From: Escherichia phage ECBP1
DNA: 64,000 nt
Sequence record: NC_018854.1
Direction: 5' to 3' (one strand)
Shown here piece after piece: positions 17,634 to 24,687 of this stretch; the first letter of the stretch is position 1, and the number at the start of each line of letters is the position of its first letter. The notes under the pieces were generated by a model, which did not search any database, had not been told where the DNA came from, and was given only the letters and a program-made list of their open reading frames with translations. The translations under genes were made by a program, and so were the position numbers.

Positions 17634-20213
17634 ATGCGTTACATCACCTCTCAGGATACGGGTAAGTATCCTATTGCTATCCTCGGTCATCAAATCCGAA
17701 GGGAGGAGATGATTAAAACCTACCTGCTGCCTAATGACCTAAGCATGGAAGATTTCATCTTCATCGAACTTCATTCTGCCCCCGGCAAGAAGAAGACTCC
17801 TGCAAGGGAGATTAAGGAGTTCATACAGCAGGAGTTGCAACAAGTACTGGACGATGCAGAGACTCAATACATTATCTGTACCGATTCTGACTACTTCAAA
17901 ATACTGACTAAAGAAGCAAAAGCAGAGGCTAACCTCGGCTACGTTTGTGATTCAGTATGGGGTAAGCAGAAGGTTATCTATGCACCTAGCTACAGACAGG
18001 TCTTTTATGACCCTCCTGTAGTGAAATCTAAGATTGCTCAGGGTATGGATGCATTACTTAACCACATACGTGGGCAGTATGCAGAACCAGGTCAGGGAAT
18101 CATTGAGTTTGAGGCTTATCCAGATACCCCAGAGAAGATTAAAGCCTGGCTAGACCAGTTGCTTGAGATGAATAAGCCATTGGCTATAGACATCGAGGCA
18201 TTCGGTTTAAAGCACTATAACGCAGGTATAGGAACAATTACGTTCTGTTGGAGTAAGACACAAGGCATAGCCTTTAATGTGGACTACGAGCCGATTCCTG
18301 GAGCTACTGAAGCACCATACGGGCGTATCAACAGAAATGATGTTGTTCGAAATCTTCTTCGTGAGTTCTTCATTAAGTACACTCAACGGCAGATGTATCA
18401 CAACATTAGCTACGACGTGTATGTGCTTATCTATCAATTATTCATGGATAACCTGATTGATACAGAAGGCTTACTGCATGGTATGGAAATCATGCTACGC
18501 AACTGGGACTGTACTAAGTTAATCACCTACCTGGCTACTAACAGTTGTGCTGGTAATCACCTTAGTCTAAAAGACCAGGCTCAGGAGTATGCTGGTAACT
18601 ATGCTCAGGATGACATTAAAGACATTCGTCTTATTCCTAATGAGCAACTCTTACGTTACAACCTCATTGATGGTTTATGTACCTGGTACACCTATGAGAA
18701 ACACTGGGATACTCTCATTGCTGATGACCAACTAGATGTTTACAACAACATCTTTAAGCCAGCCTGTGAAGATATTATCCAGATGCAGTTAACTGGTATG
18801 CCCATGAATATGGATACCGTTAACCAAGTAGCTAAGGAGATGGAAACTGACAGGAACCAGGCTCTGAAAACTATTCGTGAGTCTAAGCTCATGAAGAACT
18901 TTACCCTGATGCTTCGTCAGGAATGGGTAGATGATAAGAATGCTAAGCTCAAGAAGAAGCAGGTAACACTTGCTGACTGTGATATCGAGTTTAATCCTAA
19001 CTCCGGTCCACAACTACAGAAGCTATTATTTGACTATATTGGCTTACCGGTTCTTGGTCTTACTAAGAGCAAGCAACCTGCTACTGACGGTGACACTATT
19101 AAAGCACTGCGTACACACACGCAGAGCGAAGATGTTAAGGAACTGCTCAATGCACTTATCGACTATAAGCTCGTGGATAAGATTATCACTTCATTCATCC
19201 CGGCTTTCCGTAATGCACAACCGGGACCAGATGGATGGCACTACCTATTCGGCAACCTCAATCTGGGGGGAACGGTTTCTGGTAGATTATCTGCCTCTGA
19301 GCCAAACCTGCAAACTATTCCGTCTGGCTCCAAATACGCCAAGAAGATTAAGAAATGCTTCGAAGCACCCCCAGGTTGGATCTTTTGTGGACTGGACTTT
19401 GCAAGCCTTGAGGACCGTATCTCAGCTTTAACTACTAAAGACCCTAATAAATTGCGTGTGTATACTGACGGGTTCGATGGGCACTCCCTCAGAGCTAAAT
19501 TTTATTTCGGCGAGCAAATGCCGGATATAGATGATTCTGTGGAAAGCATCAACTCTATTCAGAAAAAATATAAAGCCTTACGTAGTGAATCGAAAGCTCC
19601 CACTTTCTTATTGACTTACGGTGGGACTTATATGGGCTTGATGAAAAACTGCGGTTTCCCGGAAGGGAAGGCTAAGTTAATCGAATCCAGATACCATGAA
19701 ATGTATACGGTTAGTGATGCCTGGGTTCAAGCTAAGCTAGACGATGCTGCCAAAACTGGTTATGTTACTGCCGCATTCGGTTTGAGAGTGCGTACTCCTT
19801 TACTGGCTCAAGTATTACGTGGGACATGTAAGACTCCGTATGAAGCAGAAGCAGAAGGCAGAACTGCTGGTAATGCTTTAGGGCAAAGCTGGTGTCTACT
19901 AAATAACCGTGCTGGTTCAGAGTTTATGCGTAAAGTCAGAGCCAGTGAGTTCAGGTTAGATATTCGTCCTAGTATTCATATTCATGATGCTCAGTACTTC
20001 ATGATTCGTGACAACATGGATACTTTGCAATTCACGAACAAGCACTTGGTTGAAGCCGTTAACTGGCAAGACCATCCTGATATTGCTCACCCAGAAGTTG
20101 GTTTGGGTGGGGAACTATCCTTGTTTTACCCAACGTGGGCTAACGAGATTGAAATTCCAAATCACGCTACCCCAGAAGAAGTTCATCAAATAATTCAAAA
20201 GGCATTCGCATGA
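17634..20213 (+). CDS. family-A DNA polymerase with 3'-5' exonuclease domain
   Basis: Exo motif 'AIDIEAFGL'; pol motifs 'DFASLEDRISA' (A), 'KAPTFLLTYGG' (B), 'HIHDAQYF' (C); 859 aa. Confidence 0.9.
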   Translation: MRYITSQDTGKYPIAILGHQIRREEMIKTYLLPNDLSMEDFIFIELHSAPGKKKTPAREIKEFIQQELQQVLDDAETQYIICTDSDYFKILTKEAKAEANLGYVCDSVWGKQKVIYAPSYRQVFYDPPVVKSKIAQGMDALLNHIRGQYAEPGQGIIEFEAYPDTPEKIKAWLDQLLEMNKPLAIDIEAFGLKHYNAGIGTITFCWSKTQGIAFNVDYEPIPGATEAPYGRINRNDVVRNLLREFFIKYTQRQMYHNISYDVYVLIYQLFMDNLIDTEGLLHGMEIMLRNWDCTKLITYLATNSCAGNHLSLKDQAQEYAGNYAQDDIKDIRLIPNEQLLRYNLIDGLCTWYTYEKHWDTLIADDQLDVYNNIFKPACEDIIQMQLTGMPMNMDTVNQVAKEMETDRNQALKTIRESKLMKNFTLMLRQEWVDDKNAKLKKKQVTLADCDIEFNPNSGPQLQKLLFDYIGLPVLGLTKSKQPATDGDTIKALRTHTQSEDVKELLNALIDYKLVDKIITSFIPAFRNAQPGPDGWHYLFGNLNLGGTVSGRLSASEPNLQTIPSGSKYAKKIKKCFEAPPGWIFCGLDFASLEDRISALTTKDPNKLRVYTDGFDGHSLRAKFYFGEQMPDIDDSVESINSIQKKYKALRSESKAPTFLLTYGGTYMGLMKNCGFPEGKAKLIESRYHEMYTVSDAWVQAKLDDAAKTGYVTAAFGLRVRTPLLAQVLRGTCKTPYEAEAEGRTAGNALGQSWCLLNNRAGSEFMRKVRASEFRLDIRPSIHIHDAQYFMIRDNMDTLQFTNKHLVEAVNWQDHPDIAHPEVGLGGELSLFYPTWANEIEIPNHATPEEVHQIIQKAFA

Positions 20214-20515
20214 CCAAAAGTACTAAAGAAACTGTTGTCAGAAAATATCATTGGATGGTAGCAGCACAGGTAGTATTCCAACTTCCTAAAGTGGATGATG
20301 GTTCCCTGCTTACCATGAACACAATGTTGCTCACAGATGAACCTTACGTGACCTATAAAGATTTGGCTCGTGCCAATCACTCTCTGAAAATCAGTCTGGA
20401 CCAGCGTTTCGACACTTCAGTTGACTTGAAAGACATCGTTTATCTGTCTCTTAGCAACCTGGGTCTGATGTCTGAACCAGAGTTCCAGGCAAACATGATT
20501 CCCAAGGAGAAATAA
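20210..20515 (+). CDS. hypothetical protein
   Basis: 101-aa ORF overlapping polymerase stop. Confidence 0.45.
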   Translation: MTKSTKETVVRKYHWMVAAQVVFQLPKVDDGSLLTMNTMLLTDEPYVTYKDLARANHSLKISLDQRFDTSVDLKDIVYLSLSNLGLMSEPEFQANMIPKEK

Positions 20516-20991
20516 TGGCTAAGCTCTCCGGTGGATTGAATAACTGGTATGTAGTACCAGTTAAGCACCCTCAACGGAAAGAGCAAGAGCCATACCAAGC
20601 AGAGTGTGAGGATATTATCCAAGCACTGGGCATGACCTTCGATGAAGGTTGTGCCTTTAAAGCTCTATGGCGAAATGCTGCTGCCCGTATGGGTAATGGT
20701 AAACCTGGAAACACTGCTGTTTACGATGCAGAGAAGCTGGTTCATTATGCTAATCGTATTCTTGCTAAGGAGAAGTTAGCTAGTGAGTTATTTCCGGATC
20801 CTGCTACGAATGTAAATACCGTTGGTAGTTATTGGCACCATACAAACAATGGTAAACCTCACTTCACTAAAGAATTTTCATTCATTGAGATTGTTTATAA
20901 AGATGAACGAGATGAAATTTACTCGTATAACTTCAATCAGCTAAGTGAAATTAAGTGGAACTGGGTTCACAGATACAGGATTACTTACTAA
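20515..20991 (+). CDS. hypothetical protein
   Basis: 158-aa ORF. Confidence 0.45.
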   Translation: MAKLSGGLNNWYVVPVKHPQRKEQEPYQAECEDIIQALGMTFDEGCAFKALWRNAAARMGNGKPGNTAVYDAEKLVHYANRILAKEKLASELFPDPATNVNTVGSYWHHTNNGKPHFTKEFSFIEIVYKDERDEIYSYNFNQLSEIKWNWVHRYRITY

Positions 20992-21056
20992 TGAAGATAA
21001 CCAACAACCATGATGTATCACTGGCCCTGGCTGTATGGCTATTGCATGACGAGTAA
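20991..21056 (+). pseudogene. 21-codon remnant duplicating the 5' end of the gene at 21557
   Basis: MKITNNHDVSLALAVWLLHDE* versus downstream MKLTNKHDVSLALAVWLVTDD... (17/21 identical); sits immediately upstream of the HNH gene. Confidence 0.5.
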
Positions 21057-21062
21057 CTAATT

Positions 21063-21560
21063 ATGAAACAGAGGATTGCCCATGACAGGCTTTTACAGCT
21101 TGTTAGTTATGACCCTATTTCCGGGATTTTTACTCGTAGGAATACCGGAAAGGTATCTGGTTACCTAATGAAGAGTGGTTACGTTCAACTCCGTGTGGAT
21201 AGTGTGTTGTACTATGGGCATATCCTTGCATGGTTCTATGTGCACGGTGTATGGCCTACGGATAGAATTGACCATAAGGACAATATTCGCCATCACAACT
21301 GGATAGATAACCTCAGAGAAGCGACCCACAAGCAGAATAACCAGAGTGCTGTTTTATCTAAAACAAACACATCTGGATTTAAGGGGGTATCCTTTTCAAA
21401 GAATTTAGGTAAATACAGAGCAACTATTTGGGTTAACAGTAAACCAATTACATTAGGTTTTACAGATGACCCAAGAGAAGCTGCTGTTCTCTATGATGAA
21501 GCTGCTATAACTCATTATGGTGAGTTTGCTAAAACTAATAAGCAATTGGGACTGTTATGA
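21063..21560 (+). CDS. HNH homing endonuclease with AP2-type DNA-binding domain
   Basis: 'IDHKDNIRHHNWIDNLREATHKQNNQ' HNH_3 motif; 'FKGVSFSKNLGKYRATIWVNSKPITLGF' AP2 domain. Confidence 0.75.
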   Translation: MKQRIAHDRLLQLVSYDPISGIFTRRNTGKVSGYLMKSGYVQLRVDSVLYYGHILAWFYVHGVWPTDRIDHKDNIRHHNWIDNLREATHKQNNQSAVLSKTNTSGFKGVSFSKNLGKYRATIWVNSKPITLGFTDDPREAAVLYDEAAITHYGEFAKTNKQLGLL

Positions 21561-22537
21561 AACTTACCAACAAACACGACGTTAGTCTTGCACTAGCTGT
21601 ATGGCTTGTAACGGATGATTATGATTATGTAGACAATCCTAAGTATCTGTCTGTTACTACCTTGCTTAAGCCCATTAAGCAAATAGTCATGAAGCATCGT
21701 GTAGATCTTAGTGACCAGTCAATTGATGTTATGGATTTCGTCTCCACATCAATGGGTACTGGTTTACATGATTCTATCGAGAAGGCCTGGAAGCTGGGTC
21801 ATAAGACTGCATTGAAAAAGTTGGGTTATCCTCAACGAGTAATTGATGCAGTAGTCATTAACCCAACCAAAGCAGACTTTGATGCTAACCCTGACCTTAT
21901 CCCAATCTACATTGAACAGCGTGGAACCAGGATAGTTAAGGGTTGGACTATCGGTGGTAAGTTCGACATCGTAACAGAAGGTCTGCTGCAGGACTTTAAG
22001 TCTACCTCAACCTATTCCTGGGTTGCTGGTTCCCGTGATGATGAACATAAGATGCAAGGCAGCTTGTATCGTTGGATTCACAACGACATCATTACCGAAG
22101 ATGTAATCCGTATTAACTACATCTTCACTGACTTCATGAAACACATGGCTAATAGCAATCCGAACTATCCTGCTAATCGTATTATGCATAAGGATATTCC
22201 GTTGCTATCTGTCGAGAAAACTGAACGTTGGGTAGAAGAGAAGATTCACCTCATTGAAAAGTACTGGAATGCACCTGAAGAGGAAATTCCTGAATGTACT
22301 GATGAGGAGTTGTGGCGAACAGAGCCACAGTTCAAATACTTCTCTGATGCTTCTAAGGTAGATGTACCTGGAGCCAGAAGTACCAAAAAATTTGACGATA
22401 TGGCATCTGCTCGTATCTTCATGGCTGAAAAAGGTGGCAAGGGTGCTATCAAGGTCGTGGAGGGGCAGGTTAAGCGTTGTCTATACTGCCCTGTCGCGTC
22501 CATTTGCAAACAAAGAGAGAGATATTTTCCATCATGA
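21557..22537 (+). CDS. putative PD-(D/E)XK-family nuclease
   Basis: 'GGKFDIVTEGLLQDFK' D...E.K-like motif; C-terminal Cys pair 'CLYCPVASIC'. Confidence 0.4.
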   Translation: MKLTNKHDVSLALAVWLVTDDYDYVDNPKYLSVTTLLKPIKQIVMKHRVDLSDQSIDVMDFVSTSMGTGLHDSIEKAWKLGHKTALKKLGYPQRVIDAVVINPTKADFDANPDLIPIYIEQRGTRIVKGWTIGGKFDIVTEGLLQDFKSTSTYSWVAGSRDDEHKMQGSLYRWIHNDIITEDVIRINYIFTDFMKHMANSNPNYPANRIMHKDIPLLSVEKTERWVEEKIHLIEKYWNAPEEEIPECTDEELWRTEPQFKYFSDASKVDVPGARSTKKFDDMASARIFMAEKGGKGAIKVVEGQVKRCLYCPVASICKQRERYFPS

Positions 22538-24687
22538 GTATTGACCTGACCGGAGTCACTCACCACCCTGCAATTGAAGAAATTGTAGACGTGCTGTGTA
22601 ACAAGACACAAAACAACGACAGAGGATTCTTCCGTGTCGAAGTAGCCTACTTCCTGGCTAAAATGGCATCCTGCATGGGTGCAACCATTGTCACTAAAGA
22701 CCGTGGTGACTTACCAGTCAACATTTACGCTATGGCATTAGCAACGTCTGGCTTCGGTAAAGGTCACTCGGTAAATATTATTGAAGACGGCTTCATGACT
22801 GGCTTCCGTAAACGTTTTATGGAAGACACCATGCCCGTCATTGCAAATGACCGTTTATGGAAGATTGCTAACGAACGTGCTGCTCGACAAGGTACAGACC
22901 AGAATGATGAGTTTGATAAAGTCGAAGCAGAGTATAAACGTGCTGGAGCATATCCGTTTACGTTTGACTCTGGTACTCCACCAGCAGTTAAACAGCTACG
23001 ACATAAGCTGTTAATGGCTGGGTGTGGTTCAATCAACCTACAGATTGATGAAATTGGTTCAAACCTGTTGGCTAACACGGATGTATTAACTCTGTTCCTG
23101 GAATTATATGACCAGGGTAAGGTTAAACAGAAGTTAACCAAGAACACTGCTGAAAGTGTTCGTGGTGAAGAACTGGATGGTAAGACTCCAGCTAACCTGT
23201 TGCTGTTTGGCACGCCAAGTAAGCTACTAGATGGTGGTCAGACCGAAGACCAGTTCTATGACTTTCTGGATACAGGGTATGCACGTCGTTGCTTATTTGC
23301 CATTGGGCATTTAGATAAACGAGCACATGCAACAATGTCCCCAGAAGAAATCTACCGTAACCTGATTAAGCAGGATAACGTACAGTCTCTGGGTAAGTGG
23401 GCTAATCACTTCCACAGTCTGGCTGATCCAAACTTGTTCGGCTTTAAGATGGTTGTAGAAGATGCTGTGGGTATTGCTCTGATTACTTACAAGATCGATT
23501 GTGAGAAACAAGCAGAAGCTATGGCTGACCACGAAGAAATTCGTAAGGCTGAAATCTCCCACCGTTACTTTAAAGCTCTTAAGCTGGCTGGAGCACTGGC
23601 ATTTGTTGACCAAAGTTCATTCATTGAAATGTCTCATCTTAAACAAGCAATCTTGCTTGTAGAAGAATCCGGGGCAGCATTCCAGGGTATTCTCAATCGT
23701 GAGAAAGCCTATGTGAAGCTGGCTAAGTATATCGCTTCTGTAGGTAAAGAAGTGACTCATGCTGACTTACTGGAGTCGTTGCCGTTCTATAAGAGTGGCA
23801 ATGCAGCTCGTAATGAGATGATGACTCTTGCTACAGCATGGGGATACAAACAGCACATCATCATTAAGAAAACTTTTAATGAAGGTATTGAGTTCTTCCG
23901 TGGAGAGACTCTGAAAGAGACTGACATCAATGAGATGATAGTGGCCTATAGTGATAGCTTTGCTTATGACTACATTGGTGAACGTGTACCGTTCGACCAG
24001 TTGCATGTATTAACCCAAGCTCCCGGTATGCACTGGGTAAACCATCACATGAAGAACGGGCATCGTTCCGAAGAGAACGTTATTCCAGGATTTAACATGA
24101 TTGTTATTGACTGTGATGGTGGAGTACCACTGCATACGTGCCATGAACTGATGAAGGAATATAAGTTCATGACCTATACCACTAAACGTCATTCTGATGA
24201 AGAGAACCGCTTCCGACTGATTATTCCAATGAACTATGAGTTACACCTCGACACTGAGGAATACAAAGAGTTTATGAATAACGTTATGTCTTGGCTACCG
24301 TTCGAAACGGATGAATCTGCTAACCAGCGAGCCAAGAAATGGATGTCCTGTGAGACTGGTTCCTATCATTACAATCTTGAAGCAAATCTGTTGGACGTGC
24401 GTGACTTTATTCCTCGTACTAGTAAGAACGAGCAGTTCCAGAACCAGATGAAGGAAGTACAGTCGTTGGATAATCTGGAGCGTTGGTTCGCTAGTCGTAT
24501 TGCTACCGGTAATCGTAATAATCAAATGATTAAGTACGCACTGGCATTGGTTGACAGTGGTTGGGATTTTGCCCAAGTACAGCAAGCCGTCCACTCATTC
24601 AATAAGAAACTGGCTAATCCATTACCAGATGATGAATTGAATGCAACCGTAATGGTCACCGTGGCTAAACGCTTCGCTGGCAAATAA
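22534..24687 (+). CDS. replication protein, putative primase (AEP-like motifs in C-terminal half)
   Basis: ATG at 22534 overlapping upstream stop (ATGA); 'MIVIDCDGG' DxD and downstream 'KRHS' resemble primase-polymerase motifs I/II. Confidence 0.4.
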   Translation: MSIDLTGVTHHPAIEEIVDVLCNKTQNNDRGFFRVEVAYFLAKMASCMGATIVTKDRGDLPVNIYAMALATSGFGKGHSVNIIEDGFMTGFRKRFMEDTMPVIANDRLWKIANERAARQGTDQNDEFDKVEAEYKRAGAYPFTFDSGTPPAVKQLRHKLLMAGCGSINLQIDEIGSNLLANTDVLTLFLELYDQGKVKQKLTKNTAESVRGEELDGKTPANLLLFGTPSKLLDGGQTEDQFYDFLDTGYARRCLFAIGHLDKRAHATMSPEEIYRNLIKQDNVQSLGKWANHFHSLADPNLFGFKMVVEDAVGIALITYKIDCEKQAEAMADHEEIRKAEISHRYFKALKLAGALAFVDQSSFIEMSHLKQAILLVEESGAAFQGILNREKAYVKLAKYIASVGKEVTHADLLESLPFYKSGNAARNEMMTLATAWGYKQHIIIKKTFNEGIEFFRGETLKETDINEMIVAYSDSFAYDYIGERVPFDQLHVLTQAPGMHWVNHHMKNGHRSEENVIPGFNMIVIDCDGGVPLHTCHELMKEYKFMTYTTKRHSDEENRFRLIIPMNYELHLDTEEYKEFMNNVMSWLPFETDESANQRAKKWMSCETGSYHYNLEANLLDVRDFIPRTSKNEQFQNQMKEVQSLDNLERWFASRIATGNRNNQMIKYALALVDSGWDFAQVQQAVHSFNKKLANPLPDDELNATVMVTVAKRFAGK

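Follow-up and report, generated by a model that had tools for sequence, protein, structure and literature searches.

Why should a phage gene appear to begin twice, once on either side of a gene for an endonuclease? The question is raised by a 64,000-nucleotide stretch of DNA from Escherichia phage ECBP1 (NC_018854.1), hereafter the window, in which an HNH endonuclease gene is preceded by a 21-codon open reading frame (ORF) resembling the start of the gene that follows it, the exonuclease gene gp42. By its sequence the window is a G7C-like N4-type coliphage (genus Gamaleyavirus, family Schitoviridae), and phages Bp4 and PD38 are the best matches to the region, with ~98% identity over 2.4 kb. 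An earlier note had read this arrangement as the trace of a homing endonuclease which copied or displaced the 5' end of its target gene, possibly from a diverged donor allele. The anatomy can be given with high confidence: a cassette carrying the endonuclease gene and a substitute gene start interrupts gp42 between codons 21 and 22, leaving a hybrid gp42 downstream. With somewhat less assurance, we consider it probable that this is a free-standing HNH homing-endonuclease cassette lodged inside the gp42 coding sequence, which would have arrived and spread by the mechanism proposed below.

Insertion point and the hybrid exonuclease gene

The two 21-codon stretches are present as the note had described them, one at 20991-21056 (MKITNNHDVSLALAVWLLHDE, followed by a stop codon) and the other at the start of the downstream gene, at 21557-21619 (MKLTNKHDVSLALAVWLVTDD). 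Their protein identity, previously given as 17/21, is 16/21 on recount, and 44 of 66 nucleotides are identical. The many synonymous differences reported between them were found as well, with 11 codons differing synonymously and 5 non-synonymously. When the 21-residue peptide was searched against the six-frame translated window (tblastn), the second copy was found at E = 6.6e-8 and the next best match at E = 0.87; the similarity of the two copies is thus not due to chance. No other gp42 5' fragment and no paralogue of the HNH gene was found in the window.

The relatives without the HNH gene define what has happened here. In each of the eight examined (PE007, St11Ph5, PBM-2 and five IMG/VR contigs) gp42 opens with the short-ORF sequence and continues uninterrupted. 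The read-through junction is ...CATGA[CT]GA[GA]/TATGATTA..., also given as ...TGGCTATTRCATGAYGAR/TATGATTAYGTAGAC... and as ...CATGAYGAG/TATGATTAC..., the slash marking the boundary of codons 21 and 22. Since these relatives run straight through, the insert is a 566-bp cassette placed exactly between these two codons; the end proposed earlier, 21620, was essentially the right edge of the cassette, which lies at 21619. Since they also begin gp42 with the short-ORF sequence, the short ORF represents that gene's native 5' end, now displaced, as expected if a homing endonuclease insertion displaced the start of its target. Furthermore, the short ORF does not occur as an independent conserved gene, and in every carrier the HNH gene sits at this one locus. 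To judge from these comparisons, the 21-codon ORF is the orphaned native gp42 5' end and no separate gene. It retains the native start context and is closed by the TAA that the cassette brings.

Compared with PE007, which lacks the HNH gene, the 300 nucleotides upstream of 20991 are identical (300/300), the orphan copy matches at 61/63 positions and the substitute copy at 44/63, and the 900 nucleotides to the right of the cassette are 94-99% identical. In this alignment both boundaries of the cassette appear sharp. The first 200 nucleotides on the right (21620-21820) are 5-6% diverged from PE007 as compared with mostly 1-3% deeper in gp42 and 0% over the left 300 nucleotides, and this elevated divergence may be the co-conversion tract of an earlier homing event.

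The cassette keeps gp42 working, since its 3' end brings foreign codons 1-21 with their own ATG. Indeed, gp42 as encoded matches phrog_2139, annotated 'exonuclease', at E 9e-151 with an alignment that begins at residue 1, hence the hybrid gene is complete. Its match to Pfam PDDEXK_1 is sub-threshold; relatives annotate gp42 as an exonuclease, and it looks like an essential phage gene. In public records, annotation covers the HNH gene and gp42 but neither the orphan ORF nor the fact that gp42 is a hybrid. The features of the locus are collected in the table.

Table. Features of the gp42 locus and its neighbours in the window
Feature	Position (strand)	Remarks
DNA polymerase gp39	17634-20213	
gp40	20210-20515	
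gp41 homologue, left flank	20515..20991 (+)	phrog_9919, E 2e-86; annotated gp41 in G7C, St11Ph5 and Bp4
Orphaned native gp42 codons 1-21 (21-codon ORF)	ORF 20991-21056, native part 20991..21053 (+)	TAA at 21054-21056
Inserted cassette, 566 bp	21054..21619 (+)	TAA, CTAATT, HNH gene and substitute gp42 codons 1-21
HNH endonuclease gene, 165 amino acids	21063..21560 (+)	AP2-like C-terminal DNA-binding region; stop overlaps the new gp42 start (ATGA)
Cassette-borne substitute gp42 codons 1-21 (probable foreign allele)	21557..21619 (+)	LVTDD where LLHDE is conserved
Functional exonuclease gp42, 326 amino acids, PD-(D/E)XK-like	21557..22537 (+)	cassette codons 1-21 and resident codons 22-326
Putative homing target, left half (codons 15-21, V-W-L-L-H-D-E)	21033..21053 (+)	insertion point here
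Putative homing target, right half (codons 22-28, Y-D-Y-V-D-N-P)	21620..21640 (+)	from the junction common to all carriers
Primase gp43	from about 22534	

A consensus scan of the + strand, whose coverage does not extend to N4-type promoters, found no sigma-70 promoter or terminator inside the cassette; co-transcription of all four cistrons is therefore probable. The TAA stop of gp41 shares nucleotides with the native gp42 ATG, and the succession of TAATG, then TAA, six nucleotides and ATG, then ATGA suggests translational coupling along the row.

The endonuclease, its distribution and an apparent loss

The HNH part of the label 'HNH-AP2', under which the protein had been described, stands, given a match to Pfam HNH_3 of 36.9 bits against a cut-off of 24.8 (E 2.8e-9, residues 50-94). 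The AP2 part is better worded as AP2-like, given that the match to PF00847 (residues 104-151, profile positions 1-51 of 54) reaches 19.2 bits against a gathering threshold of 33.3 (E 0.0015). The window's protein therefore resembles the HNH-AP2 endonucleases in having an HNH_3 domain followed by an AP2-like region, and differs from them in that its own AP2 score falls below the Pfam cut-off. The AP2-like region weakly resembles the plant AP2/ERF protein WRI1 (7wq5, E 0.005), and a sequence search of the PDB gave no characterised relative apart from such plant factors. The protein also matches phrog_99 (E 9e-59), its DH...N...N residues are conserved across an alignment of 16 homologues, and many of the homologues found among 5.8 billion proteins carry PF13392 and PF00847. 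In all seven carriers examined the ORF is intact at 165 amino acids, and pairwise dN/dS of the gene lies between 0.04 and 0.11 with dS of up to 0.44. These low ratios indicate that the protein is maintained by selection, the gene being under strong purifying selection.

Within the phage collection the cassette was found in 11 records (8 phages), the native uninterrupted allele in 38 and a chimeric allele in 2. Three variants of the cassette can be told apart, namely A in the window, Bp4, PD38, Uz-1 and PW8 (566 bp), B in G7C and Mimir124 (566 bp), and C in 24-32N and EC1-UPM (563 bp), in which the orphan ORF ends in CATGGGTAA. Between G7C and Mimir124 the cassettes are 98.4% identical and the left flanks 80.1%, and between 24-32N and EC1-UPM the corresponding values are 95.7% and 79.9%; the window and EC1-UPM show the reverse, with left flanks 96.8% and cassettes 90.4% identical. 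The relationships of the cassettes are thus discordant with those of their left flanks, a pattern which fits a mobile cassette. As for the left neighbour itself, gp41 (20515-20991) occurs among Gamaleyavirus in allele classes only ~80% identical, which assort independently of the cassette and of gp42; this indicates that recombination just to the left of the insertion site is frequent.

A neutrally decaying pseudogene is expected to accumulate mostly non-synonymous, private changes. Among carriers the orphan copy has seven polymorphic sites, all seven synonymous and all seven also polymorphic in functional HNH-less alleles, and the orphan copy of G7C matches the native gp42 start of an HNH-less IMG/VR contig at 63/63 positions. 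The simplest reading of these sequences is that the orphan copy would be copied afresh from the functional gene of the recipient whenever homing or recombination takes place. It is also conceivable, at perhaps one chance in a few, that the short ORF is selected as a leader, its translation from the native gp42 ribosome-binding site bringing ribosomes to the HNH start and then to gp42 via ATGA. The ORF is open in 7/7 carriers examined with its TAA always six nucleotides before the HNH ATG, even in variant C with its different end. Moreover, the HNH start is preceded by only a weak Shine-Dalgarno-like GAG, the cassette has no promoter of the scanned kind inside it, and the purely synonymous polymorphism is what selection on a peptide would leave. 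However, every one of these polymorphisms recurs in functional HNH-less alleles, one orphan copy being identical to such an allele, and refreshment by homing or recombination accounts for the pattern without selection on the peptide, while the stop and the spacing are set by the way the cassette is built. A leader role is in any case compatible with homing and not an alternative to it.

In two HNH-less Gamaleyavirus records, NAN33P5 and K57alpha1.2, gp42 follows gp41 directly and its start is chimeric. Nucleotides 1-11 of this allele are of the native type (ATGAAGATAAC), while nucleotides 12-63 are identical at 52/52 positions to the substitute copy of variant B, the B-specific synonymous states included, and the product is MKITNNHDVSLALAVWLVTDD. 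The flanks of both records are closest to those of the variant-B carrier Mimir124 (left 95.6%, right 96-98.7%). This chimeric 5' end looks like the footprint of the loss of the HNH gene through recombination between an orphan and a substitute copy, presumably leaving an immune allele behind. Conversely, this LVTDD allele could be the ancestral source of the substitute copy; it is the natural allele closest to it, matching the window's copy at 53/63 and that of G7C at 60/63 positions. We hold this to be improbable. The perfect match over nucleotides 12-63 is to variant B although any two of the three variants are distinguished by 4-7 of the 63 positions, the first 11 nucleotides are of the native or orphan type, and the flanks point to the same variant-B carrier. 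Furthermore, a donor from within the genus would have supplied homology on the left as well, so that no orphan copy should have been left. Since the chimeric allele nests within the diversity of the cassette, an ancestral allele is the less parsimonious of the two.

Origin of the substitute start and the likely target

The substitute 5' sequence (GTTAGTCTYGCACTWGCNGTWTGGCTTGTWACNGATGAT) differs from the native copy by 12.25 synonymous differences over 14 sites, which is saturation, and by 8.75 non-synonymous differences. It keeps the lineage-typical peptide HDVSLALAVWL and reads LVTDD in place of LLHDE, and of its last 15 nucleotides, which fall in the putative target and end at the right junction, 8 are not those of the native copy. 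Between cassette variants A, B and C the differences in this copy (4-7 of 63 sites) are almost all synonymous. The natural allele of the N4-type locus L020 displays the same pattern, with 13 synonymous differences and 1 non-synonymous difference. Since the synonymous saturation of the substitute copy matches that of natural alleles of other genera, import from a diverged relative is favoured over divergence in place. The diverged donor allele supposed in the earlier note is therefore upheld as far as the pattern goes, with saturation as between genera next to flanks 94-100% identical to an HNH-less phage, but no donor was found.

The failure to find one, in 88 N4-like loci and in the phage collection alike, would be explained if the gp42 5' end had been tandemly duplicated in place within the G7C lineage, the HNH gene landing between the copies and the downstream one diverging fast for immunity, with no foreign donor at all. 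The lineage-typical HDVSLALAVWL of the substitute copy would then be a simple inheritance. This is nevertheless very unlikely. Synonymous sites are saturated next to DNA that is 1-6% diverged from HNH-less relatives, and selection for immunity would not require 11 synonymous changes spread across all 21 codons, whereas saturated synonymous sites under a conserved peptide are what alleles of other genera, such as L020, show. Moreover, the occurrence of the same HNH clade ahead of the same gene in distant phages points to import.

Indeed, HNH proteins 51-57% identical to the window's are encoded directly upstream of the exonuclease gene in four distant N4-like lineages, HN01 (a Burkholderia phage) and the metagenomic groups L076/79/80, L094 and L095/96, those of L094 and L095/96 being 54-57% identical and at the same upstream site. 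The upstream-of-exonuclease proteins included in a neighbour-joining tree (G7C type, HN01 and L079) form one clade, and paralogues found at the gp42/gp43 junction fall outside it. None of these distant carriers has a duplicated exonuclease 5' end. Decayed orphan copies ahead of the HNH gene were considered and rejected, since the gaps in HN01, L094 and L095/96 align no better than shuffled sequence (p = 0.29, 0.84 and 0.32). The gap before the HNH gene in L079 is the conserved intergenic spacer that precedes the exonuclease ATG in the HNH-less L070 and L071. Given that the distant carriers lack the duplication and that L079 keeps the spacer, an ordinary free-standing homing-endonuclease gene (HEG) ahead of the exonuclease gene is taken to be the ancestral arrangement and that of G7C the derived one.

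The gp42/gp43 junction (22534-22537 in the window) is a second hot-spot of homing endonucleases. In many relatives it holds HNH paralogues 37-50% identical to the window's, as at L007 2495-3010, L008 2969-3457, L005 2004-2519 and L006 3469-3981, and likewise in L014, L016-18, L025, L058, L069 and L072. EC1-UPM and HN01 have HNH genes on both sides of gp42, and the window has none at this junction. Another endonuclease gene, of the HNH_3/NUMOD4 type, lies directly 3' of the DNA polymerase gene in the metagenomic N4-like contigs L094 (441-1037), L095 (342-929) and L096 (224-811).

The N-terminus of N4-like exonucleases carries a conserved motif, AVWLLHDE/YDY, with the codon 21/22 boundary at the slash. 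Its His19 is absent from all five HNH-linked alleles (LVTDD, LLADD, AMFDE, LVDDS and LVDDN) and kept in 37 of 55 distinct unlinked alleles (Fisher p = 0.006, with no correction for phylogeny). We infer that, in alleles without the HNH gene, the DNA encoding AVWLLHDE/YDY is what the enzyme recognises, and that alleles linked to the gene are immune. Non-consensus motifs at codons 17-21 (LLSDD, LAQDD, MVNDD, LLADN, LLHDD and others) also occur in the HNH-less loci L034, L043, L049, L054, L057, L058, L068 and L087, and these could be resistant alleles left by an earlier loss of the endonuclease.

Based on these observations, the following course of events is proposed. The enzyme would cut HNH-less alleles at or near codon 21/22. 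In the ancestral arrangement, as preserved in four distant N4-like lineages with the HNH gene before the exonuclease start, homing would co-convert the HNH gene and the 63 nucleotides up to the cut, and these 63 nucleotides would carry the substitutions that confer immunity, with His19 replaced. Entry into the G7C lineage would have been by one-sided repair, in which only the right end of the break could pair with donor sequence, from codon 22 on. The left end, having no homologous partner, would have been joined illegitimately, possibly via a GAG(TA) microhomology, so that the resident codons 1-21 were retained. From then on the orphan copy may have served as a left homology arm abutting the cut, allowing ordinary homing and being re-derived from the functional gene of each recipient. 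Finally, recombination between the two diverged copies would delete the HNH gene and give an HNH-less, presumably cleavage-immune allele as in NAN33P5 and K57alpha1.2.

One-sided double-strand-break repair with microhomology junctions is known from experiments on T4 intron homing (reviewed in PMC2988022). The G7C-type junction, with both edges at codon 21/22, would result from the repair of a break at that position whose 3' ends had remained intact. The GAGTAAC ahead of the HNH ATG resembles the ribosome-binding region ahead of the HNH gene of L095 (GAGTTAAC), and a GAG(TA) microhomology with codon 21/22 is plausible. For the exact cut position at codon 21/22 and the one-sided origin we would put the chances at about even.

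Several points weigh against this account. The discordance between cassettes and left flanks could stem from the general mosaicism of phages, with gp41 alleles swapping independently. At the 88 N4-like loci, carriers apart, the 5' end matches the substitute copy at no more than 45/63 nucleotides, and in the phage collection only the carriers and the two chimeric records matched it. For the HNH protein, the search of 5.8 billion proteins gave no match with an identity in the range from 57% to 96%. The GAG(TA) microhomology is a conjecture made without the donor sequence, and the cut position is deduced from the junction alone. The cut may also lie elsewhere than at codon 21/22, given that many HNH homing enzymes nick at some distance from where their genes are inserted. 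Finally, 18 of the 55 unlinked alleles also lack His19, and its association with linkage ignores phylogeny.

A further step may be envisaged, though we offer it as a tentative idea that is somewhat less likely to be right than wrong. The HNH gene and the 21 immune codons might together form a self-sufficient module for replacing a gene start, and the locus might record the full life cycle of a HEG from invasion through spread and loss to resistance. Carrying the whole of the sequence from its insertion point to the cut site, such a module would need homology on one side only to enter any N4-like exonuclease gene. If so, an unrelated upstream gene would be no obstacle to its passage from one genus to another. 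The start left orphaned would be both a homology arm for later homing and a repeat for the eventual deletion that leaves a resistant allele, and the scattered non-His19 alleles of other N4-like lineages would be old footprints of loss.

An insert lying within coding sequence between direct repeats also recalls a self-splicing intron, an intein or a transposon with target-site duplication, but these can be practically dismissed. In 20400-22200 no match to any Rfam family, group I and II introns included, was found at E <= 1. Instead of being fused in frame, the HNH ORF starts and stops by itself as a separate cistron, and the downstream copy supplies an ATG from which a complete protein of family length is read. 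The 63-nucleotide repeats are only 67% identical (44/66), unlike a target-site duplication.

Known systems, significance and neighbouring genes

The closest precedent, by analogy and not by descent, appears to be the fungal mitochondrial mORF 'gene hybrids', whose way of working the cassette resembles without being of that lineage. These were described for atp6 of Allomyces macrogynus (Paquin, Laforest & Lang 1994, in PMC3630166) and also for atp6, atp9, cox2 and nad3 of Glomus, atp9 of Rhizopus and cox2 of Mortierella (PMC3630166). As in the cassette, an endonuclease ORF lies within a protein-coding gene without an intron or intein, and the foreign, diverged copy of a gene terminus that the element brings keeps the gene complete. 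The displaced native terminus likewise remains alongside, nearly identical to the gene of close relatives, and the divergence of the two copies is far higher in nucleotides than in protein. In contrast, the mORF hybrids replace the 3' (C-terminal) segment, which lies before the endonuclease, so that the cassette is their mirror image, replacing the 5' (N-terminal) segment after the HNH gene. They are also found in an organelle and are often in phase with the host gene, whereas the cassette resides in a phage as three separate cistrons. The mORF enzymes, finally, are known as GIY-YIG or LAGLIDADG rather than HNH enzymes.

Among phages, the comparison is with SegB, SegF, SegG and MobE of T4, free-standing homing endonucleases with distant cleavage sites and co-conversion, known as 'intronless homing' (PMC2988022, PMC2790892, PMC2330249). 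In common with the cassette, each of these is a stand-alone endonuclease gene that neighbours a conserved gene and is found in some close relatives but not in others, and the allele linked to it is presumed immune. Their spread relies on double-strand-break repair in which the DNA from gene to cut is co-converted, as is proposed for the cassette. They differ in sitting between genes or in splitting a gene into two working pieces, as in Aeh1 nrdA and gene 43 of phage 25, and the review PMC2988022 describes no element that brings a replacement gene start and leaves the old start behind. One-sided homing in T4 (PMC2988022) resembles the proposed origin of the cassette in having homology at one side of the break only and a microhomology junction at the other, but was a laboratory construct, whereas the cassette is a natural product, seemingly fixed and spread. 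Full-text searches, of incomplete coverage and with the original G7C genome paper outside their reach, gave no description of this arrangement in N4-like or other phages.

To our knowledge, only three kinds of site have been recognised for phage HEGs, namely intergenic ones, introns and inteins, and points at which a gene withstands being split. The gp42 locus would add a fourth option, the invasion of coding sequence with a replacement gene start. It gives a precise prediction of the target, namely the DNA for AVWLLHDE/YDY of an N4-family exonuclease, and may show one-sided (illegitimate) homing at work in nature as a means of transfer across lineages. Furthermore, the sequenced isolates appear to cover the never-invaded, the invaded and the post-loss resistant state. 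For annotation, the analysis accounts for the unannotated 21-codon ORF and indicates that the first 63 nucleotides of gp42 in carriers differ in history from the remainder.

Some observations concern the annotation of neighbouring genes. The mechanical ORF list opens gp43 (22477-24687) at a TTG at 22477, whereas relatives use an ATG overlapping the gp42 stop, at 22534 in the window. In the Bp4 record (L004, NC_024142.2) the DNA polymerase and the primase are annotated as several fragments, which suggests frameshifts or sequencing errors in the record rather than biology. In L093 (OY979416.1 63565-66648), portal, spanin, endolysin and holin pseudogene features are placed on the opposite strand over DNA of the gp41/gp42 region, and this annotation looks misplaced.

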